From Escherichia coli (GTDB lineage: Bacteria; Pseudomonadota; Gammaproteobacteria; Enterobacterales; Enterobacteriaceae), in NCBI RefSeq assembly GCF_011045215.1, contig NZ_CP049201.1: a stretch of DNA of 64,000 bases; one strand, 5' to 3'. The notes under the pieces were generated by a model that did not search any database, was not told where the DNA came from, and saw only the letters and a program-made list of their open reading frames with translations. Position numbers and translations under genes: made by a program. Shown here in pieces: positions 22,796 through 51,573 of this stretch; position 1 is the first letter of the stretch; each line of letters starts with the position of its first letter.

Positions 22796-25240
22796 TTACA
22801 CCTTTTCAACCTGAACAAGGTTTGTATGTGACGGATTCCCCTTAGCGAGAGGAGACGGACGTTGAGTGGTCAGTACGTTAATACAACCACCCTTATCGAC
22901 ACGTTTTGCATCCGGGTCATACCAGGCACCTTCACCCAGTGCGACCACACCCGGCATCATTCGTGGCGTCACTTTCGCCTCAATATGAACCTCACCACGA
23001 TCGTTAAAGATCCTGACTTTATCGCCGTTGTGGATACCGCGTTTTTGGGCATCAAGCGGGTTGATCCACATTTCCTGACGGCAAGCCGCTTTCAGCACAT
23101 CAACGTTGCCGTAAGTTGAGTGAACGCGAGATTTATAGTGGAAACCTGTAAGCTGCAGCGGATACTGTTTGTTCAGCGGATCCTGATAACTTTCAAAGCC
23201 CGGCGTGTAGATCGGCAGTGGATCGATCACATCGCCTTCTGGCAATTCCCAGGTAGCGGCAATGTCAGCCAGCGCCTGCGAATAAATCTCAATTTTGCCC
23301 GATGGCGTAGTCAGTGGGTTTGCCTGCGGATCTTCACGGAAGGCTTTATAAGCAACGTGATGCCCTTGTGGGTCGCGCTTTTTAAAGATCCCCTGCTTGC
23401 GGAACTCTTCAAACGTTGGCAGTTCAGGAATCGCTTCCCGCGACTGGGCATACAGATGCCGCATCCACTCTTCCTGGGTACGGCCTTCAGTAAACTGTTG
23501 CTCAACGCCAAGACGTTTTGCCAGTTCGCTGGTCATTTCATAGATGGTCTTACATTCAAAGCGCGGTTTAATCACCTGATCGTTGAAAATCACGTAAGAC
23601 ATATTCCCGCAGGATGCATCCAGTGCAAAGTCCATCTGTTCGGAAGCGGTACAGTCAGGCAGCAGGATGTCAGCATATTTCGCCGATGAAGTCATGTGGC
23701 AGTCGATAACCACAATCAGCTCGCACTTCTTATCATCCTGGAGGATTTCATGGGTACGGTTGATTTCAGAATGCTGGTTAATCAGGCAGTTACCGGCATA
23801 GTTCCAGATCATTTTGATCGGCACATCCAGCTTATCTTTCCCGCGCACACCATCACGCAGCGCCGTCATTTCCGGGCCACGTTCAATGGCATCGGTCCAC
23901 ATAAACATAGAAATGCTGGTCTGGATCGGGTTTTCCAGAGTCGGCATACGGACAAACGGTAAGCTGTATGAACCTTCACGCGCGCCGCTGTTCCCTCCAT
24001 TAATACCAACGTTACCGGTCAGAATCGCCAGCATCGAGATAGCACGGGTTGCGATTTCACCGTTAGCGTGACGCTGCGGGCCCCATCCCTGGCTGATAAA
24101 CGCCGGTTTGGTACTGCCGATTTCACGAGCCAGTTTGATGATTTTGTCTGCCGGAACACCGGTGATTTGCGAGGCCCATTCCGGTGTTTTAGCCACGCCA
24201 TCTGGCCCTTCACCCAGAATATAAGCTTTATAGTGGCCATTTTTCGGCGCACTGGCTGGCAGGGTTTTCTCGTCATAGCCAACGCAATATTTATCGAGGA
24301 ATGCCTGATCCACCAGGTTTTCGGTGATCATGACATACGCCAGACCGTTAACCAGTGCGGCATCTGTTCCTGGACGAATAGGGATCCACTCATCTTCGCG
24401 CCCGGCACCGGTGTCGGTATAGCGCGGATCGATGATGATCATGCGGGCATTAGATTTCTGACGCGCCTGTTCAAGATAGTAAGTCACCCCACCGCCACTC
24501 ATTCGCGTTTCGCCAGGGTTATTACCAAACAGCACTACCAGCTTACTGTTTTCGATATCCGACGGGCTGTTGCCATCTGCCCAGCCGCCCTAGGTATAGT
24601 TCAGACCTTCCGCAATTTGCGCGGAAGAGTAGTCACCGTAATGGTTCAGATAACCGCCGCAGCAGTTCATCAGCCGCGCGACCAGGGTATTTCCCGGCGG
24701 CCAGGAGCGGGTCATGGTGCCACCCAGCGTACCGGTGCCATAGTTAAGATAGATGGATTCGTTGCCGTACTCTTTGATCAGGCGCTGCATATTGGTCGCG
24801 ATGATGTCGTAGGCTTCTTCCCAGCTAATGCGCTCGAATTTGCCTTCACCGCGCGCCCCGACTCGTTTCATCGGATATTTCAGGCGGTCCGGATTATAGA
24901 CACGGCGACGCATGGAACGCCCACGCAAACAGGCGCGAACCTGGTGCAGGCCGTCGTAATTGTCATCGCCGGTATTGTCCGTTTCGACATATTTGATTTC
25001 ACCGTCCACGACGTGCATACGTAGCGGGCAGCGACTACCACAGTTAACTGTACAGGCGCTCCAGATAACCTTTTCGTCTGATTTTGTTGGAATGGCGCTA
25101 TCGACAGCGTGCGCAATCCGACTAAAAGGTAATGTTAATGCGCTGCTGGCCATTGCCAGGCCGCCGATCGCTGTCGTTTTTACCAAACCACGGCGACTCA
25201 CCTCAGCAGCCAATACCGCATCAGGGATTTTCGTTTTCAT
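22796..25240 (-). pseudogene. dmsA: DMSO reductase catalytic subunit dmsA interrupted by a single in-frame TAG codon at 24590..24592
   Basis: ORF 24590..25240 encodes the DmsA N-terminus with the twin-arginine signal (SRRGLVKTTAIGG) and ends ...AEGLNYT-stop. ORF 22796..24535 continues in the same frame (25240 and 24535 differ by 705 nt); the 18 codons in between read GGWADGNSPSDIENSKLV, so the reading frame is otherwise intact. Confidence 0.85.
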
Positions 25241-25478
25241 AATGGCTCACTCAAGCTTGCTCACGATTGATTCCAGTAACAAACCGTATTGTGTAATTAT
25301 TTCTATAGCAGATCGCTATATAGGCTTGTATACATCGAATAATTTGAAAATCAAAGAGATAGGTAGATTTTCACTCGAAAGTAGTATTACGTGTAAGTGA
25401 GGAGTAATTATTGTTCGGTATCAAAGGGAGACAAAAAAAGCGCCCGCAGGCGCTTTTTAGATTCAGAAAAATTAGGTA

Positions 25479-28981: not shown

Positions 28982-31900
28982 TTAGTCAAACGGCGGTGGG
29001 GCCAGCACTTCACGATTACCGTTGTGCCCCTGTTCGCTGACAATCCCCTGCGCTTCCATCTGTTCGATAATACGCGCTGCACGGTTATAACCAATGCGGA
29101 ACTGACGCTGTACGCCAGAAATTGACGCTTTGCGTTTTTCAGTGACAAACTGCACCGCCTGATCGAACAACGGATCCAGTTCTTCAGCGCCATCGAAACC
29201 GCCCGCGCCACCTTCGCTTTCACTGTCGGAAGTGATGCCATCAACATACTGTGGGCGACCACGCGCTTTCCAGTCCTGCACCACGGCATGAACTTCCTGA
29301 TCGCGAACAAAAGCACCATGGACACGTACCGGCAACGTGGAGTTCGGCCCAGAGTAGAGCATATCCCCCATACCCAGCAGTGATTCCGCGCCAGCCTGAT
29401 CAAGAATGGTACGTGAGTCAATCTTACTGGATACGGTAAAGGCGATACGGGTCGGAATATTCGCTTTAATCAGACCAGTAATAACATCAACCGATGGACG
29501 CTGAGTTGCCAGTACGAGGTGGATACCCGCGGCACGGGCTTTTTGCGCCAGACGTGCTATCAGCTCTTCCACTTTTTTACCTACCGTCATCATCAGGTCG
29601 GCAAATTCGTCAACCAACACCACAATGTATGGTTCTTTTTTCAGCACCGGATGCTGGGCATCCATACTGTCACCCGGCTTCCAGTACGGGTCTGGAATCG
29701 GACGCATCATGCGATCGGCTTCAGCAATTTTTTCGTTATAACCCGCCAGATTACGCACACCCAGCGCAGACATCAGTTTATACCGACGCTCCATCTCGTT
29801 AACACACCAGCGCAGCGCGTTGGCGGCATCTTTCATATCAGTAACGACTTCCGTTAACAGATGCGGAATGCCTTCATAAACCGAAAGCTCCAGCATTTTC
29901 GGGTCGATCATGATGAAACGCACATCTTCTGGCTGTGCTTTATAAAGCATGCTCAGGATCATCGCGTTCACACCGACAGATTTACCGGAACCGGTAGTCC
30001 CCGCAACCAACAAGTGCGGCATTTTCGCCAGATCGGCAACCACCGGCTCACCGGCGATATCTTTACCCAGCACCACGGTTAATGGCGACGGATTATCGCG
30101 GAATTTGGCGTTATCCAAAACTTCGCGCAGATAAACGGTTTGTCGTTTTTTATTCGGTAACTCCAGACCTACATAGGGTTTGCCAGGAATAACTTCAACG
30201 ACACGCACCGCCACCGTCGAAAGTGAACGGGCAAGGTCCCGTGACAAGTTAGAAATGCGCGCCGCTTTTACGCCCGGTGCCAGGTTCAATTCAAAGCGAG
30301 TGATAACCGGCCCCGGAGAGTAATTGACGACATCGGCTTTAATACGGAAATCAGCCAGACGCGCTTCCACCAGGCGAGCCATTTGTTCAAGCGCAAAGGT
30401 ATCTACCGGCTCCACTTCGCTCGGCGGCGGTGTCAGCAAATCCAGAGAAGGCAGCGGCGTCGTCGGTTTATGCAACGGACGGCTGTCGCCATTACGCATC
30501 AACAGCGGATGAAGCAGGGTATCCTGCTGCTGCGGTGCAACCGGTTGTTGCGGCTGCTGTACAGGTTCAACAATTGGCGTAAACAACGGTTCGTGTGGAC
30601 CATCATCCAGCAACGCTTTCATTGGCGAAAATTCAAAATCATCCAGCGAGAACGGATTCGCCCCAGCCGGTTGTTCGCCGGAATAACGTTGTTGTTGAGT
30701 TTGCGCAAACTGACGAGCCAGTTCAGCCTCTGCCGCAGCATCTGCATCTTCTGCGTTTACGGGCACATCATGTTGATACTGTTCGCCATAGCGTTGCTGC
30801 TGTGTCTGGGCGAACTGACGTGCCAGTTCATCCTGCTGCATCGCATCGATTTCATCATCGTTGTACTGATCGCCAGAATCGTACTGATTGCGCTGGGCTT
30901 CACGGGCTTTTTCTTCCGCCGCACGCTGTGAGGGCAGCTTAATACCGTAAGACGCCAGTTCACGACGAGTTGGCACGCGGATACGTTTCGGTCGTGGCAA
31001 CTGCGGGCCAATCCCCTCTTTGACCTGCGGACGCGGTCCACCGCTATTTGCCAGACTGAAGACTGGCGCGGCAACGGTTGCGGCAGCCCCCGTCGCCAGT
31101 GTCGCTTTTTTCACGCCAGATGCCAGCGGAGAAACAGCGGCAGCGGTTTCTACTGGAGGTACTGCTGCAACAGAAAGTGCTTTCAGCGAAGATTTGATCG
31201 GTTCTGGTTCTTTAACCGGTTCTGGAATCGGTTGATACCAGGCCGCAAGTTGTTCACGTTCACGGGCTCGCTTCTCTTCCACTTCTTCAAAGTAGTAAAG
31301 CGGCGGACGCGCGGGTTTTGTCTCTTCTACAACGGGTTCAGGCTCCACAACAGGCTGCTGTTCAACAGGTTGCGGCTGTTGGTACAACGGCTCCTGAGCG
31401 GCTGGCTGCTGATAAGTTTGCTCAGTCTGGTATGTAGACTGTGGAGCAAAAGTGGATTGCTGCTCTTCGGCTTGCCAGGCGTTACCTGCCACCGGTTGTT
31501 CTGGCGCAGGGGCATAATACGGCTGTTGCGCAGGCTGTTCCGGCGCAGTTGCGTAATACGGTTGCTGAACAGGTTGTTCCGCCGCAGGAGCGTAGTAAGG
31601 TTGTTGCGCAGGTTGTTCAGCTGCAGGTGCATAATACGGCTGCTGCGGCTGTACTGGTTGTTGCAGCGGCTCATTATATTGCACTGCAGGCTGCGCATAT
31701 TGTGACTGCTGTGGGTAACCTTCCGGTGCAGGAGCAATAACCGGCTCTCCCGTTTGTGGACCCGGTACAGGCTGCCAGGCTACTGTAGGTTGCGAAGGTG
31801 GAACATCAACAGAGGCAACAGGCGGCGTCTGAGTCACAGGTTCAACCGGCGCAGCCCAGCTTTGTGTCGCCGTGGTAGCAGCAGCTGCCACAGCGACAGG

Positions 31901-32854
31901 TTCGGTAATTGGCGCACCGTTTAATAATGGATCGTATTCGTCATATTCTGGCTGCGTTGCACGATTGCCCGAAAATAGGACGTCGTCCGGGTCGGCAGCC
32001 ACACCGCGTGCAGTGTAGGTAATCTCTTCGTCATCATCCATCCGCTTACCGGAGAACAACGCAGCGTCTGTTTGCCGCCCCATCGGATTAATGAATTTTT
32101 CCGCCAACCGTTTACGACGCGCTAGCGCGCCGCGAAGAATACGGGCACGGCGTGATTCATGCTGTTTGCCGTGGTTTTCATCTTCATACTCTTCGTCATC
32201 TTCATATTCATCTTCATCGACCCAGGTATCATCGCGACGGGTACGATTACTAGCGAAGGTGAGAATGTTTAAAATCCAGCCGCCGAGTTTTTCAGCAATG
32301 GTCACCCATGACCAACCGGTGAACAGCGTCAGGCCCGCAGCCCAAACGCAGAGCAGCGCAATAGTTCCCCCGCTACTGTGTAGCAGTGGTTGTAGCGTAG
32401 TGCTTAGTAAGCTGCCAATGACGCCACCGGAGGCAAAATACCAGATATCGTCAGCGTTGATTGCCGCCAGACCACAGGAGGTAAGGATGAGCGCCAAAAC
32501 GCCAATGATGCGTAGCGAAACGGCAAAATAATCAATGTATTCGTCACTGGACTGATGACGCCAGGCAAACCAACAACCGCCGACAATAATGACGGGAATG
32601 GTGTAAGCCATCACGCCAAAAATAAAGAACAGCGTATCTGCCAGCCACGCACCGGGCATCCCACCTAAATTATGGATAGGTTCATGCCAGGCCGTTTGCG
32701 ACCAGCTGGGGTCCGAAGGGTTAAAGCTTAGTAAGGCAGCCATCAACCAGACGGCAAACAGGACAATAAGGATCAGCAACGCCTCCAGAAGGCGGCGGCC
32801 GCTACTTAACTTTGTCAATGTGACTTCTTTGTCTTCAGTGTATTCCTGGCTCAA
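28982..32854 (-). CDS. ftsK: DNA translocase FtsK
   Basis: 1290-aa [36 protein letters not shown]...; N-terminal membrane domain, Pro/Gln-rich linker, C-terminal motor with Walker A GTTGSGKS. Confidence 0.95.
31440..31700 (-). repeat. In-frame tandem repeats in the FtsK linker (QPYYAPA(A/P)EQP(A/V)QQ units; approximate)
   Basis: Protein shows [55 protein letters not shown]; the matching nucleotide repeats are visible around 31.5-31.7 kb. Confidence 0.7.
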
Positions 32855-40106: not shown

Positions 40107-40194
40107 GGTGAGGTGTCCGAGTGGCTGAAGGAGCACGCCTGGAAAGTGTGTATACGGCAACGTATCGGGGGTTCGAATCCCCCCCTCACCGCCA
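40107..40194 (+). tRNA. serW: tRNA-Ser (GGA anticodon, serW-type), 88 nt with long variable arm
   Basis: GGTGAGGTGTCCGAGTGGCTGAAGGAGCACGCCTGGAAAGTGTGTATACGGCAACGTATCGGGGGTTCGAATCCCCCCCTCACCGCCA read directly; coordinates anchored to ORF 40121, which starts at tRNA position 15. Confidence 0.9.
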
Positions 40195-44245: not shown

Positions 44246-45064
44246 TTAGCGCATGCTCTCCAGCAGCGTTTCTGCCATCACCCACAATGCGCGATTGAGC
44301 TTAATGTCCGTGTCGATGCTGTGAATGGCACGGGTGTGGATACGTTTTCCTTTAGCGCTGCGACCGGAAATTCCGCCTTTCAGCATATTCTCCTGAATGG
44401 TCTGATAAGCACTCCACAGGTCCTTACCGTAATCCTCCCTGCGTCGTGGTGTCAGAATGTCGGCGGTGGTGACGGGCTGATGTTCGTCACCATAACGGTA
44501 AGTCAGTGCCGCCTGTGCCAGCGCCTGGTGTGCCGGTGGCGGCAGAATCAGCGACTGCATGGCATCACGCTTTTCCTCAATCCGGTCAAAAACGCCCACC
44601 ACTTCGTAAGCCCCTTCAATAACTTTCTCCACCACGTCTCCCCGGTGCGGAACACGCACCTCTCCCAGAGACTGACCGCAGACGCACCCGTTCTGACAAA
44701 CGAATCTGAAGTAACCCGGCAGCATCTGGTAGCTGGAGGTACCGTCATGGGAATTGAGCAGGATGATTTCCGGGACATGCTGTCCGTTTATCTCTCCGGC
44801 CCGCCGCAGACGCAGCATGTGTTTGGTATACCCCCGGCGGCCCGGGTCACGTACGCGGGTCTGGCAGGCGAAGAAGGGCTGAAAGCCCTCCCGCTGCAGA
44901 CTTTCCAGCACGGTGATGGTGGGGATATACGTATAGCGTTCACTGCGGGAGGTATGCCGGTCTTCCCCAAAAATACCGGGTACATAGTGCATCAGCTCTT
45001 CATGTGTCAGCGGACGGTCACGGCGTATCTGGTTCGCATAACCAAAACGACTTGCTAATCGCAT
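44246..45064 (-). CDS. DUF932-domain protein (YfjQ/YafZ family)
   Basis: 272-aa ORF MRLASRFGYANQIRRDRPLTHEELMHYVPGIFGEDRHTSRSERYTYIPT... Confidence 0.75.
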   Translation of the reverse strand: MRLASRFGYANQIRRDRPLTHEELMHYVPGIFGEDRHTSRSERYTYIPTITVLESLQREGFQPFFACQTRVRDPGRRGYTKHMLRLRRAGEINGQHVPEIILLNSHDGTSSYQMLPGYFRFVCQNGCVCGQSLGEVRVPHRGDVVEKVIEGAYEVVGVFDRIEEKRDAMQSLILPPPAHQALAQAALTYRYGDEHQPVTTADILTPRRREDYGKDLWSAYQTIQENMLKGGISGRSAKGKRIHTRAIHSIDTDIKLNRALWVMAETLLESMR

Positions 45065-45338
45065 GATCTGCTCCTTATGAATGATTAAGCGGTATAAATG
45101 AAAAAGCCGCAGCTCCCGGAGAAGACGCGGCCTGATGGATGATGTTTATTGTCTGAGGTACCCTTCACGGGCGGGCCACGCATTAAGCTGTTATGACAGC
45201 AACCGCCTGCCCGTATGAGAAAGATCCTTCAGCCAGGACATACTCTGTGTAACCCGGCATATCTGTTTTCTCCTGATAAATAAAAAGCCTCTGCCACGCG
45301 TTGTGACAGAGGCTGAAGCATGAAACTGACTTCAGGGA

Positions 45339-45794
45339 TCAGTTAACGTTTTTTCCGGAAACGGTAATTAGCAGTGGATGGTAGTCCTGGGGATCGAAAA
45401 CCGATAACGGCAGACTGACACGATGGCCGTTACTTTCTTCAGTTGCTTTAATGATTTCGGTTGTGGCGACATTTTCCACGCACTCCGTTTCCAGAAATGC
45501 GTCTGTGGTTCGCGTGGCATCACTGTCACCAAAGGCTTCCGTTTCCATTTTTCTGGTCACCAGCCTCTGACCATATTTGTCTTTGAGTTGCAGAGTGATG
45601 GTGAGGGGGCCAAATCCTTCTCCGTTTCCGCCATTATCCAGCCGGAACTGGTAAGCACAAATATTTCCCGGGAGCCATATCGTATCTGTATTGCGTATAC
45701 TGATGTAACGTTGATCCTGTGCCCGGAGTGGGGCAGACCACGTTAACCCCAGAATGACGCCGGTAATAATGCAGGTTTTGAACAGGTGAATCAT
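45339..45794 (-). CDS. Putative secreted/lipoprotein-like small protein (CP4-like module)
   Basis: 151-aa ORF with N-terminal signal peptide MIHLFKTCIITGVILGLTWSAPLRA. Confidence 0.45.
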   Translation of the reverse strand: MIHLFKTCIITGVILGLTWSAPLRAQDQRYISIRNTDTIWLPGNICAYQFRLDNGGNGEGFGPLTITLQLKDKYGQRLVTRKMETEAFGDSDATRTTDAFLETECVENVATTEIIKATEESNGHRVSLPLSVFDPQDYHPLLITVSGKNVN

Positions 45795-45869
45795 GGTATT
45801 TACCTCTCTGAGTCATGACGATGACACTGACAAATCAGGTGATAAAACGTAAAAGGTGCAGAATACTCG

Positions 45870-48392
45870 TTATGCCGGTAACTCCGGGGGTAATGCTTCT
45901 TCCAGCCGGTTAACCATATTGCCGAGATGGGATGCATCATATTCCATGACGGGGCGTTGCCTGATGATACTGACCACCAGTGGTTTGATTAACATATTGG
46001 TCGCGGCCCGTTGTTGTATACCGGCGGCGAAAATGATCTCCAGAGCATTCTGATCGATAACACGGGCCAGATTCGCGTTCAGATTTTCTGTTTCATGTCC
46101 GGTCAGCAGGAAACTGCCGGCAAGCCATGTCACCTGTTCCTGAATCATTGCCAGAATTTTGACGCGATCTTCTTCAACCAGCGCTCCGGCAATTTTTCCT
46201 GATACAGCGGAGGCAATCATTCCCCCCAGAACACCGCCAACCACACGCCCTGTCAGTGCACCAAATGGTCCCAGTGGACTGAACAGTATCCCGCCCGCCA
46301 CTGACCCGACAGCTCCACCTGCCACACCGGAAGATGCCACGGCAAGATTCCTGATGAACTGCGTACCGGAGATCCGTCCCCGCAACATTTTGATCATGTC
46401 AGGGCCGGTTGTGACAGCTACCAGTGCCAGAGATGTCACCAGCGTACCCTTCATCACTTTGTTCAGGGCACTGATATTTCCTGCACCGGTCCCCTTCTGA
46501 AGAGCCAGTCGGACAGTCGGGCTGGCAGTCGAAAAATCAATGTGCTTCAGCATACCCTGAACAACACTGAGCCGGTGGAGTTGCTGGGTTGTGACGTAGA
46601 CAGCCAGTGTGCGGGTGAAGGTTTTTCCTGCCTGGACAGCAGCTGTCTGCAGAGCAGCATCGCGATCGCCGGTGCTGAGCCAGAAGACCGATGCCGTCAG
46701 GGCAAAACTGATCCCTCCGGCCGCCAGACTGACAACCGAACCCTCGGCAATATCATAAGTGACCGATTCGATGGTCCCGAACCGGGTGATATTACGGGCC
46801 TGAGTATAAGTCAGATGTCCCCGACGAATCAGCCGGGACGCTTCTGCGGGATCGATTACACCGGGTACTTTACCTTCGCGGATCTTATTCCTCATGGTTT
46901 CAACAGCGCCGGCATACTGATCACGGGGGACTTCCAGTTGCATGGGGCCATTATTTCCCATGTAACGATACTGTCCGTTTTGTCCGTCGAATGCCGCACC
47001 GACGCTACGGGCTGCAGTTGAACAATATTTCGTCTGGATTTCTGTTCCGCTGACCAGTCTGTCTGCTCCATTTCTGGCATTATTATCACCGAGGATCCGT
47101 GCGTTTTTCAGACGGATTCTGTCGACAATATGGTTTCCCCGTTCAGCGGCAAACCCATGTCCCTGCCCTCCGGAAGCAAACATTTTCTCATTTGTACTCC
47201 AGGTTTCCGGCAGTTTCATGAGAATCAGACCATTCGCCGTTGCATCGGAAATAAAACTGTTGTAGGGGCGTTCATAAATTTCCTGACACAGTGTTTCTGT
47301 TTCGCGACAAAGAGAGGAGCAGTACCATTCCGGATCCGGCTTATGATTTTCCGGGGCATGATGTACTTCTGTCAGCCCGCAGGAGGCACAGACACGAAGC
47401 TCATCCACGTGATGGAATGATACAAAACGGCGACCTTCTGAAAAGGGATACCAGTCACCGCCGTCCAGGCAACGATCGAGAAAATCGTCATTCGCTTCCG
47501 GTGATAAATTCAGGCGGTTCCGGAAGAGTGTTTTCAGTTCATCAGGTGTGAATGACAGGTTCTCTTTCAACTGTTCGTTAAACCCTGCCATGTTTCTTTC
47601 ATACCAGGCATTGTTCAGTAACCAGTTTCCGTCTGCCAGTTCAAATTCCCTCAGCTCTCCCCGGGAAATCCGTTGAGAAATAAGCGTCAGCCAGATGCGC
47701 TCCGTCAGTGAGTCAGGAAGGCTGTAATCGTTTTGCAAACTGGTCAGCCACGATTTACTGTTGAGCACCGGTTGTTCTTCCAGTGTCTGGCTGATGGCAC
47801 AGGTCAGTTTTTTCAGCGCCTGGATTTGGCTGGCCGCCCATAGCAGCGTCACTAATGCAGCCAGCCAGTACAACAACCCGCCCCACCACATCAGTGACGG
47901 TGAAATATCGTACTGTAACGCGATCAATGGTGCGCATGCAGAACAAGCCATAAGGAAAAAGGCAGTATAAAAACAGCAGTAATATCCGTTAATTTCCTTG
48001 CTGATATCTTCTGGTGTGATCCCGTTCTGCTGAATGTTTTTGATCTGCAGGGGAACAGCCAGCAGACCACCGGCGAGAGCGGTGGTCAGAATAAATTTCA
48101 CGGAGTCAAAGGTGTGAGACTCCAGCGCAATATGTTTACCATCAAGTCCCCACATGAAGCTGATGATCATTCCGGCAATCGTCAGAAATACGCCTGCCAG
48201 CCAGCGAATATGGAACAACCGGGTTATGCGTTCGGTGATATAGCCAGCCAGTAAGGCCGGGCCGAACAGACACAGCAATATGAGCCCTGCCAGCGCAGAA
48301 GCCGTGCTGATTAATGCTCTGAACAAAAGGCGAAGAATGGCAAATCCTGCGATCAGCAGGATCAGCGCGCCGACTATCTGTAACATAGTCAC
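45870..48392 (-). CDS. yeeR: YeeR-like large inner membrane protein
   Basis: 840-aa ORF with multiple TM segments at both ends; located between the Ag43 gene and the DUF932/antirestriction genes as in CP4-44-type elements. Confidence 0.7.
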   Translation of the reverse strand: MTMLQIVGALILLIAGFAILRLLFRALISTASALAGLILLCLFGPALLAGYITERITRLFHIRWLAGVFLTIAGMIISFMWGLDGKHIALESHTFDSVKFILTTALAGGLLAVPLQIKNIQQNGITPEDISKEINGYYCCFYTAFFLMACSACAPLIALQYDISPSLMWWGGLLYWLAALVTLLWAASQIQALKKLTCAISQTLEEQPVLNSKSWLTSLQNDYSLPDSLTERIWLTLISQRISRGELREFELADGNWLLNNAWYERNMAGFNEQLKENLSFTPDELKTLFRNRLNLSPEANDDFLDRCLDGGDWYPFSEGRRFVSFHHVDELRVCASCGLTEVHHAPENHKPDPEWYCSSLCRETETLCQEIYERPYNSFISDATANGLILMKLPETWSTNEKMFASGGQGHGFAAERGNHIVDRIRLKNARILGDNNARNGADRLVSGTEIQTKYCSTAARSVGAAFDGQNGQYRYMGNNGPMQLEVPRDQYAGAVETMRNKIREGKVPGVIDPAEASRLIRRGHLTYTQARNITRFGTIESVTYDIAEGSVVSLAAGGISFALTASVFWLSTGDRDAALQTAAVQAGKTFTRTLAVYVTTQQLHRLSVVQGMLKHIDFSTASPTVRLALQKGTGAGNISALNKVMKGTLVTSLALVAVTTGPDMIKMLRGRISGTQFIRNLAVASSGVAGGAVGSVAGGILFSPLGPFGALTGRVVGGVLGGMIASAVSGKIAGALVEEDRVKILAMIQEQVTWLAGSFLLTGHETENLNANLARVIDQNALEIIFAAGIQQRAATNMLIKPLVVSIIRQRPVMEYDASHLGNMVNRLEEALPPELPA

Positions 48393-48506
48393 TCCGTGAT
48401 GAATATCATGTTATTGTTAATGCCAGCGAATGTGGCGTTGAATATCCGTTGCGCCGGTCCGGGTCCCGATCATGATGACCGGGACCACAGAGAGGCGATG
48501 GTTCTG

Positions 48507-51356
48507 TCAGAAGGTCACATTCAGCGTGGCCTGACCGTTATAGCCTTCGGCGCTGTTGCCGCTGACACTGTGGGCATAACCGGCCTGAACGCCCAGGGTG
48601 ATATTTTCCCGGACACGGGCTTCCAGTCCGGCCTGCAGGTCCAGTGACGTGCCATTCCGGGACGGTGAAAACGTCATGTTACTGCCGGCGGCGGCTGTAC
48701 CCATGCTCATGTCACCCCGGGAGCTGAAAGTGCGGATAACAGAAGGCTGTACCCACCAGTTCACCGGCAGTTCACTCACACGGTGTTTTGCACTGTCGCG
48801 CAGAGTGTCACGGGATGAGGTGCCTTCGCCAAAAGTCATATCGTTGTGGCTGCCCAGACGGAAGCCGGCACGCACATGTTGTGCACTGCCATGCCCGAAC
48901 TTCACATAACCGGCGTTATCCTGGCCGTCATCCAGGGAGAGCCCCTGCCAGGTGTACTGCAGTTGTGGCTCCAGCATCAGGTTGTCAGTGATACTGAAGG
49001 GCAGACCGGTTTCCAGTGAGCCCAGCCAGCCCCAGCCCCGGGCGCGGAAGTCGTTATTGTCCGATGACGCTTTCATGCTGTGGCGGGTTCCCTGGGCCAC
49101 AATGTCAGCCCACAGGCCGGAGGACGTGTGTACCAGATTCAGGTATCCGCCCAGGCTGCCGGCATCATCCCGGACCGTGCCGGCACGGGAGCCGTCATCA
49201 TCCTTAACATCAACGGAAGAATGGCCAGCAGCACCATACACTCCTGTCGTCAGTGACATACCGGCAACCTCTGTTCTCAGCAGGTCACCCTCCAGACGGA
49301 CGAGGCCATAGCTGCCGCTGCTTTCCGGCGTGGCCCCACGGGCAATACCACCGTTGTTATCGTGCCCGAGATGACCGCCCTGAATGCTGAGACGGACGCT
49401 GTTATTTTCACCGCTTACACCGGTCTGATGGCTGCGGGAACCTGCCAGAATCCGGTCATAGTCCATTGCCTGTGTCAGCATGGAGGCATACAGGGGGACT
49501 TCAGCACGATAAGCATTTTCACTGCGCAGGTACCAGTCTTCATCGCTGTCACGGTTCAGGGTGTAGTTAAAGGCGCCGGCCTGAAGCGGGCGACTCAGGG
49601 CAAACGCACCTTCTTCTGTGGTAGCACCATTCTGTGCATCCACAACCCGGATACCCTGTCCGGAGGTTGCCACCCCGAGGTTACTGTTTCCGACATTTGT
49701 AAACGCAAGCCAGGTTTTGCCGGTTGCCTGACCACCATTAATCACCAGCTGGTCAGAGGCATTACTGCCATCAAGGCTGACACGCATATTGATGGTGCCG
49801 CCCTGGCCGGTGAGGTTCGTGGTGGTTAGTTTATGGAACGTTACCGGGGAGTTACTTTTTGCAACAGCACGGCTCAGCGCGGCATCCGGTGTCGTCTGAT
49901 TATCAAAGTGAATCTCTCCTGCGTTAATAATATCGCCGGTACTGACCACATCACCATTCAGTACCATACTGGCGCCTTTACTGAGCTGTGTTCTGCCACT
50001 CAGACTTCCCCCGGCAGCCAGCGTCAGTGTTCCACGATGTCCGACAGTGGTGTTGCTGGCCAGTCCTCCGGCATTAACCGTAAAGCTGCCGCCATTTTCC
50101 AGCAGCAGGCCGCTGGCCTGACCGGATATGCCATCAATACTGAACTTACCGCTGGCATTGGTCCCCTCAACAGTGGCACCACTGTCTGCAATCAGGGCAC
50201 CACCGGATGTCATGGTGACATCTGTTGCCTTACCACCGGCAGACACTGCCAGGGTACCGCCGTCATCCACCAGTGTTTTCCAGGCTGAATGGCCCTCCAG
50301 TACATCCAGGCGACCGCCGGACTCCAGAACAACGCCGTCAGCCTTACCGTTTTCCACTGTGAAATTCCCCAGGCGGTTTGTGCCGGTGACAGTTGCAGCA
50401 GTACTGGTAACCAGTGCACCGCCCGTGTTCTGGGTGACTGCAGTGGCTTCCCCGCCGGCATGTACCCTCAGTTCACCGTTCTGATTTATGGTGGTGTTAC
50501 CGGCAGCGCCACCGGCCTTAACAACCTGCCAGCCCCCCTCGTTAATTACCGTGTTCAGCGCCAGTCCGTCCTTGTGCACATACTGGTAACCGCCATTCAG
50601 TGTGGTATTCAGGGCCCTTCCGTGTACCGACTGGTCACCACCTGCGTAAATGAGAGTGTCACGGGCTATCCCGGAAGATAAGATAATCTGCCGTCCATTT
50701 TTGTTGATGGTGGTGGATTCTGCTGTTCCCTGGACCTTCTGACCCGTGTACGAGTTGTCAGAATCCGGGCCGCCTTCTGCGCCGGTGTTGATGATGGTTC
50801 CTGTTGCCAGCCCGCCACTTTTAACGCTCTGGTAACCGTCGCGGTTGATAATTGTACCGGTGGCAACCCCGCCCTCATGAACCCACTGCTCGCCTCTGTT
50901 ATTCAGCGTGGTGTTCACCGCCAGCCCGTTCAGGCTCTGTCCCCCGCCGTCACGAATAACCGTATCACTGGCTGTTCCCCCCTCCAGCACGACCTGACGA
51001 CCATTTGTGGTGACAGTGGTGTTTCCGGCTATCCCGCCATTCTGTATCCATTGCCCACCGGTGTTTTCTTCACTGTCCGGCCCCAGTTCCAGCCCGGTAC
51101 TGATGGTCATTCCGTTGGCCGTACCGAGGACAATCTGGTTGTCATGATTTGTCAGTGTTCCGCCGCTCATGGTTTCTCCCGCCTGTACAACCGTGTCAGC
51201 AGCCAGTGCCGGGACTGACGTGACAGCAGCAAGAGACAGCGCAACCGCCACACCGGTGCGTTTTCCCCGTGAGCGGGCCAGTTCGGAGGCCACCACCAGG
51301 GTGCCCGTAATGTGATTCCATACCAGCCTGTAGCTGGTGTTCAGATGTCGTTTCAT
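48507..51356 (-). CDS. flu: Antigen 43-type self-associating autotransporter adhesin
   Basis: ORF 48507..51431; real start at the internal MKRHLNTSYRLVWNHITGTLVVASELARSRGKR (extended autotransporter signal peptide); passenger repeats; C-terminal beta-barrel ending ...GYNGQATLNVTF. Confidence 0.9.
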   Translation of the reverse strand: MKRHLNTSYRLVWNHITGTLVVASELARSRGKRTGVAVALSLAAVTSVPALAADTVVQAGETMSGGTLTNHDNQIVLGTANGMTISTGLELGPDSEENTGGQWIQNGGIAGNTTVTTNGRQVVLEGGTASDTVIRDGGGQSLNGLAVNTTLNNRGEQWVHEGGVATGTIINRDGYQSVKSGGLATGTIINTGAEGGPDSDNSYTGQKVQGTAESTTINKNGRQIILSSGIARDTLIYAGGDQSVHGRALNTTLNGGYQYVHKDGLALNTVINEGGWQVVKAGGAAGNTTINQNGELRVHAGGEATAVTQNTGGALVTSTAATVTGTNRLGNFTVENGKADGVVLESGGRLDVLEGHSAWKTLVDDGGTLAVSAGGKATDVTMTSGGALIADSGATVEGTNASGKFSIDGISGQASGLLLENGGSFTVNAGGLASNTTVGHRGTLTLAAGGSLSGRTQLSKGASMVLNGDVVSTGDIINAGEIHFDNQTTPDAALSRAVAKSNSPVTFHKLTTTNLTGQGGTINMRVSLDGSNASDQLVINGGQATGKTWLAFTNVGNSNLGVATSGQGIRVVDAQNGATTEEGAFALSRPLQAGAFNYTLNRDSDEDWYLRSENAYRAEVPLYASMLTQAMDYDRILAGSRSHQTGVSGENNSVRLSIQGGHLGHDNNGGIARGATPESSGSYGLVRLEGDLLRTEVAGMSLTTGVYGAAGHSSVDVKDDDGSRAGTVRDDAGSLGGYLNLVHTSSGLWADIVAQGTRHSMKASSDNNDFRARGWGWLGSLETGLPFSITDNLMLEPQLQYTWQGLSLDDGQDNAGYVKFGHGSAQHVRAGFRLGSHNDMTFGEGTSSRDTLRDSAKHRVSELPVNWWVQPSVIRTFSSRGDMSMGTAAAGSNMTFSPSRNGTSLDLQAGLEARVRENITLGVQAGYAHSVSGNSAEGYNGQATLNVTF

Positions 51357-51573
51357 CAGCTTTTCCTTACAGAGGGTGAATAAAAAAGCCGGTACCCACA
51401 AATGTGGATACCGGCAGGTACAAAACAGCATGGTCAGATAAAGTGGTTTTTCCCGGACATAAATGCTTCCCCTCTCTCATCCGCCAGAGAAGTATCAGTC
51501 CGTTGTGTGCAATTCCGTTCTGCATGATGAAGAGATTCAGCTGCCTTTTCGCAGGCCATTAACCACTACAAAC

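Follow-up and report, generated by a model that had tools for sequence, protein, structure and literature searches.

Amber codon 217 in dmsA of an Escherichia coli strain: a probable recent, strain-specific loss of DMSO reductase

Gene content and organization of the dms locus

The gene dmsA was found downstream of serS in the 64-kb window (the whole stretch of DNA that was analysed) and is directly followed by dmsB and then dmsC. The gene order lolA, rarA, serS, dmsA, dmsB, dmsC, ycaC, ycaD is identical to that of E. coli Combat11I9, and the Pfam families Molybdop_Fe4S4, Molybdopterin and Molydop_binding were detected in dmsA, spread over two fragments. Judging by the synteny serS-dmsA-dmsB-dmsC-ycaC and by the Pfam domains, the gene is dmsA. 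A megablast search with the 2445-nt dmsA query gave matches in 5,423 of the 5,426 complete RefSeq E. coli genomes, with a top identity of 99.8%; with such identity to a gene this well known, chance resemblance is of no concern.

The reading frame of dmsA on the minus strand, from 25240 to 22796, comprises 815 codons with a single internal stop, codon 217. The plus strand reads CTA at 24590-24592, base 24590 being C instead of G. The nearest intact allele among the complete E. coli genomes is dmsA of Combat11I9 (WP_000850303.1). Compared base by base, the two agree at 2440 of 2445 nt and in 813 of 814 encoded residues; the 5 differences are the replacement of TAC (Tyr) by TAG at codon 217 and four third-position changes, all synonymous. 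The preliminary description of this DNA had claimed a single in-frame TAG at a Tyr position as the only lesion of dmsA, with ORFs of 216 and 579 aa in one frame and 18 open codons between them. All of this was borne out: translation of the frame shows one internal stop, the ORF list gives the same two ORFs and the same spacing, Combat11I9 has TAC at this position, and the remaining differences from its allele are the four synonymous sites. Coordinates of the features are given in Table 1.

Table 1. Features of the dms locus, with coordinates in the window
Feature	Coordinates	Strand	Description	Basis
dmsA	22796..25240	-	DMSO reductase catalytic subunit, pseudogene; 814 codons and stop	Translation; 99.8% nt identity to Combat11I9 dmsA
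Tat signal peptide	25106..25240	-	Twin-arginine leader, residues 1-45, SRRGLVK ... AHA/V	Translation
N-terminal fragment of dmsA	24590..25240	-	216 aa, Tat leader to start of molybdopterin domain	ORF list; Pfam PF04879, PF00384
Ser205 codon	24626..24628	-	Predicted Mo-coordinating serine	phmmer alignment to Rhodobacter DMSO reductases
Premature amber codon	24590..24592	-	Codon 217, TAG (TAC, Tyr, in intact alleles)	Translation and allele comparison
In-frame sense codons	24536..24589	-	18 codons from TAG to first mechanical start of downstream ORF	Sequence, ORF list
C-terminal codons of dmsA	22796..24535	-	579 codons, mechanical ORF from internal GTG	ORF list; Pfam PF00384, PF01568
dmsB	22168..22785	-	Fe-S subunit, intact, 205 aa	1 conservative aa difference from reference; 4Fe-4S Pfam families
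dmsC	21303..22166	-	Membrane anchor, intact, 287 aa	4 aa differences, no stops; PF04976
serS-dmsA intergenic region	25241..25478	-	238 nt, dmsA promoter and regulatory sites	No differences from Combat11I9 in alignment

The Tat leader, the FS0 cysteine motif, the Pfam domains and the position of the Mo-ligand serine are shared with intact E. coli DmsA (WP_000850303.1), whereas codon 217 is TAG, so that the product has 216 residues at most. As read from the sequence, the locus is dmsA in origin and in its present state a nonsense pseudogene, with no uninterrupted frame for the subunit of ~87 kDa, and it should be annotated as one pseudogene (Y217 amber), not as two CDSs. The allele appears to be undescribed; the event is of a routine type and involves no new biological mechanism.

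The change from TAC to TAG creates a CCTAGG site (AvrII/BlnI) at 24589-24594. CCTAGG occurs once in the 64-kb window, versus 7.4 occurrences expected from dinucleotide-preserving shuffles, and the low count agrees with the known rarity of CTAG in E. coli. In PFGE with BlnI, the new site would split a band.

An ORF of 318 aa, antisense to dmsA (24068..25024, plus strand), is open across the mutated base. Other long antisense ORFs were found opposite pflB (750 aa, 14135-16387, minus strand, nearly the whole length of the gene) and opposite dmsB and dmsC (386 aa, 21685-22845, plus strand). All three are probably shadow ORFs resulting from codon bias.

State of the surrounding core genome

Across the 39 kb of the window that belong to the core genome, all other conserved genes are of normal length, and there is no sign of general gene decay in this part.

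Several features of the region are unrelated to the stop codon. The gap between pflA and ycaM is only ~210 nt long (17329-17537), whereas K-12 carries ycaK and ycaN between these genes; the O157:H7 strain PV15-279 shares this short junction, which there contains a small gene remnant. FtsK (28982-32854) consists of 1290 aa versus 1316-1368 aa in most other loci (1277 aa in one), with the variation apparently located in the Pro/Gln-rich repeat linker, and an exact-protein look-up found the 1290-aa variant on record only for SRR11014969. In an unrelated assembly, SRR5194988 (locus L006, 1-5701), the end of a P2-like prophage with genes of integrase, Cox and an HTH repressor lies directly upstream of dmsA, in the usual place of serS, which points to the serS-dmsA intergenic region as the likely location of a phage attachment site.

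The window also contains a genomic island located after tRNA-Ser(GGA) (serW), at 40107-64000. Its CP4-44-like module is represented by genes of a DUF4942 protein, a RadC-like protein, a DUF932 protein, IrmA, YeeR, the autotransporter Ag43/Cah (48510-51356) and a YeeP-like GTPase; it is followed by genes of an IS481-family transposase, an unannotated protein of 366-371 aa and an EAL-domain protein, and further by an AraC-like regulator, an IS3-family element and IstB of IS21. The best match of the island among complete genomes is strain C5 from a cow (74% covered, 96.6% identity). For Ag43, the look-up was made with the 949 aa counted from the true start, the mechanical ORF of 974 aa having given no match. 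An identical Ag43 protein is encoded in the draft genome GCA_009901295.1, which belongs to a different strain, since identity between its DNA and the window reaches only 98.99%.

Extent of the truncation and possible restart of translation

Upstream of the stop, the dmsA translation contains the signal peptide, whose cleavage site and role we take from established knowledge of DmsA, and the N-terminal group of cysteines. Alignment with phmmer pairs S205 of DmsA, within the GDYS motif, with Ser147 of the Rhodobacter DMSO reductases 1eu1 and 1dms, a residue established as the Mo ligand. The stop lies 12 residues past S205 and removes 598 of the 814 residues (73%); this alignment places it early in the catalytic fold. 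No structure of E. coli DmsA was found in the copy of the PDB that was searched. The 216-aa piece carries Molybdop_Fe4S4 and the start of Molybdopterin, and the 579-aa piece carries the remainder of Molybdopterin and Molydop_binding; thus, the break falls inside the Molybdopterin domain, not between domains.

Possible restart codons after the stop were scored by the energy of anti-Shine-Dalgarno pairing, which is -0.6 kcal/mol for GTG236, -1.9 kcal/mol for ATG247, -5.4 kcal/mol for GTG252, i.e. Shine-Dalgarno-like, and +0.2 kcal/mol for ATG267; the native start of dmsA gave -4.7 kcal/mol and the start of dmsB -8.7 kcal/mol. Because pairing before GTG236 and ATG247 is weak, the C-terminal ORF of 579 codons is probably not translated. 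Some restart product from GTG252 may be conceivable and would be devoid of the leader, FS0 and S205.

Active DmsA assembled from the N-terminal fragment and a restarted C-terminal fragment would be compatible with both halves being open and with the pairing at GTG252. Such a split enzyme is nevertheless scarcely credible, as the break lies within a domain, GTG236 and ATG247 are almost devoid of a Shine-Dalgarno sequence, and at least 19 residues would be missing. Moreover, no natural split DmsA at codon 217 was seen, and the other split loci owe their state to frameshifts or stops and are marked as pseudogenes by PGAP.

Support for the stop codon from a read-level assembly

Exact-protein look-ups found identical products of 216 and 579 aa, adjacent to each other, on the Logan contig SRR11014969_10. 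This contig of 23,845 nt corresponds to positions 16285-40129 of the window with 100% identity, TAG included, and has no break or branch at the TAG site. A second contig of the same run, _254 (6.4 kb), matches 45038-51437 of the window with zero mismatches. The Logan assembly was built directly from the reads of SRR11014969, which are possibly the same as those used for the assembly of the window, so that the two are not fully independent. The change at codon 217 is a substitution located outside any homopolymer.

If the base were an error of sequencing, assembly or polishing, the strain would truly have TAC and an intact dmsA. The allele was found in one strain or run only across all resources searched, and an error would resemble such a singleton; however, the read assembly has the same base in an unbranched contig, and the change is not an indel of the kind typical of long-read errors. 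Nonsense SNPs in genomes of E. coli are also far commoner than consensus substitution errors. An error of the consensus or assembly is unlikely in view of the unbranched read-level contig with TAG and the position of the substitution outside a homopolymer, and we regard an intact dmsA in this strain as very improbable. Of the two options left by the preliminary description, recent inactivation or sequencing error, the former is favoured, since the Logan contig repeats the TAG and the change is not an indel.

Distribution and age of the allele

An exact 101-mer bearing the TAG was absent from the 5,426 complete RefSeq genomes of E. coli, where the best identity of 99.0% (one mismatch) was reached in 63. 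A TAG-bearing 57-mer, chosen so that nearby polymorphism was avoided, matched 2,349 genomes, with 56/57 at best and none exact. Exact-pattern scans for the allele gave no match in the GTDB species representatives or in the JGI metagenomes. Codon 217 is TAC in L001 and in all other compared loci that reach this codon, with the exception of L003, where C is lost. Among the sequences searched, only the strain of SRR11014969 carries the Y217 amber allele. The closest complete E. coli genomes over 25 kb (O157:H7, O55:H7 and an isolate from a baboon) show 99.3% identity, and by this measure the strain is without a close relative among complete genomes. Only four synonymous differences were found beyond the TAG, i.e. 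no decay followed the inactivation.

A private allele without further decay, for which no related genome with TAG was found, would also be expected if the mutation, real in the sequenced clone, had arisen during laboratory isolation, storage or passage and were absent from the natural source population; it is established that dmsA is not needed in aerobic laboratory culture. No finding speaks directly against such an origin, but naturally transmitted dmsA-null lineages exist, and a natural origin needs no special pleading. We consider a laboratory origin unlikely.

Suppression and recoding

ARAGORN detected one tRNA in the 64-kb window, tRNA-Ser(GGA) at 40107-40194, which is not a suppressor. 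Reading of TAG by an amber-suppressor tRNA of the supE, supF or supD type, with production of some full-length functional DmsA, is highly improbable. Amber suppressors do exist in E. coli, mainly in laboratory strains, and the dmsA ORF is otherwise perfectly conserved, which a very recent mutation explains equally well. Against suppression, the sole tRNA of the window is a normal tRNA-Ser with the anticodon GGA, none of the other genomes compared shares the TAG at codon 217, and the base following the stop is G, UAG-G not being known as a notably leaky context. A literature search for natural amber suppressors gave nothing useful. Classical amber alleles of laboratory E. coli, e.g. the rpoS amber of K-12 lineages combined with supE, are likewise chromosomal genes intact except for an in-frame TAG; unlike in those cases, no suppressor was seen in the window, and the strain is not K-12.

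Programmed recoding of codon 217 is not supported by the comparison of sequences, because the stop is conserved in no relative; among the genomes and assemblies compared, no other acquired TAG at this codon through a substitution. Recoding to selenocysteine was rejected, as the codon is UAG, not UGA, and is not conserved; recoding to pyrrolysine was rejected, as the UAG is not conserved and E. coli is without the pyl system.

Other inactivating lesions of dmsA in public assemblies

The look-up of the exact 579-aa ORF, which in this heavily sequenced species detects only breaks just upstream of one internal GTG, showed that in public assemblies dmsA has been inactivated by at least seven further independent lesions within ~60 nt (codons ~210-222), some of them common to many assemblies. 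These are a 13-nt deletion (L012, L016, L020, L021 and 11 similar places), W220 TGG to TAG (L013), W220 TGG to TGA (L014), an insertion of TA (L015 and 3 similar places), an insertion of A (L017), the loss of a G (L019) and, in another haplotype, a codon TAC217 that lacks its C (L003). The complete genome of PCP06171 carries the 13-nt deletion, which is shared by at least 15 further assemblies, and six Alberta strains, 0H15-0H26, carry a 14-nt version of it; dmsA genes with either deletion are annotated by PGAP as frameshifted pseudogenes in complete RefSeq genomes. In PCP06171, dmsA has a second break near codon 100, and ycaC is shortened in the lineage with the 13-nt deletion (169 aa versus 208 aa). 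No repeat or microhomology was found to flank the 13-nt deletion.

Contigs ending exactly at codon 216/217 (L004-L011) were discarded as an artefact of requesting the exact 216-aa product. A mutational hot spot for the eight lesions was also rejected, as the look-up finds only lesions in the short interval near the GTG.

Like the Y217 amber, the other dmsA pseudogenes of E. coli have an inactivating lesion within the ~60 nt, with dmsB and dmsC intact. They differ from it in mutation and haplotype, and several are lineage-wide and older, whereas the Y217 amber is private and without secondary decay. To judge by these genomes, E. coli strains with an inactivated dmsA occur in nature and are able to persist there.

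That dmsA is a recurrent target of selected inactivation, with the Y217 amber as the youngest of many convergent hits, is suggested by at least eight independent lesions within 60 nt, several of them fixed in lineages, a pattern not separable from neutral loss combined with strong ascertainment bias. We hold selected inactivation to be a slim chance; if true, DmsABC would be a burden in some niche and not just unnecessary.

Proposed course of inactivation and its consequences

The most probable explanation, and one we hold with considerable confidence, is a recent natural, strain-specific C-to-G nonsense mutation of dmsA that is unsuppressed and has led to the loss of DmsABC. A very recent C-to-G transversion on the coding strand would have converted Tyr217 from TAC to the amber TAG in one natural strain. 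An ordinary ribosome would terminate at codon 217, yielding a fragment of 216 aa, or of 171 aa should the Tat leader be cleaved off. The fragment would retain the twin-arginine leader, the FS0 cysteine cluster and the Mo-ligand serine, with most of the bis-MGD-binding fold gone; predicted to be unable to bind the cofactor, it would leave the cell without active DmsA and hence without the DmsABC menaquinol:DMSO oxidoreductase. As a result of the 1.7 kb of untranslated dmsA message, Rho-dependent polarity would probably lower the expression of dmsB and dmsC. Anaerobic growth of the strain on glycerol plus DMSO is predicted to be lost, with respiration of TMAO, nitrate and fumarate (Tor, Nar, Nap, Frd) remaining unaffected. 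Termination, polarity and phenotype are steps that we infer from established knowledge of DmsABC. In metabolic models, the strain should be predicted to be negative for DMSO respiration.

The loss of DmsABC is likely to be tolerated. According to a review, DmsABC was reported to be non-essential for the colonisation of the mouse gut by E. coli (PMC7759655); dmsABC is nevertheless induced in the contents of the bovine rumen and small intestine (PMC6199705). In the host-restricted enteric bacterium S. Typhi, dmsA and dmsB are pseudogenes (PMC3735119), as are other genes of anaerobic respiration, namely, ttrS, narV and narW; the likeness consists in the loss of a DMSO reductase gene by point lesions (PMC3735119). 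The loss in S. Typhi, however, is part of a genome-wide pattern linked with an extraintestinal lifestyle, whereas here the rest of the core genome in the window is normal. Independent lesions of dmsA are numerous in E. coli, some having spread through a whole lineage, and they may bear on relaxed or negative selection on the DMSO respiratory branch in some habitats.
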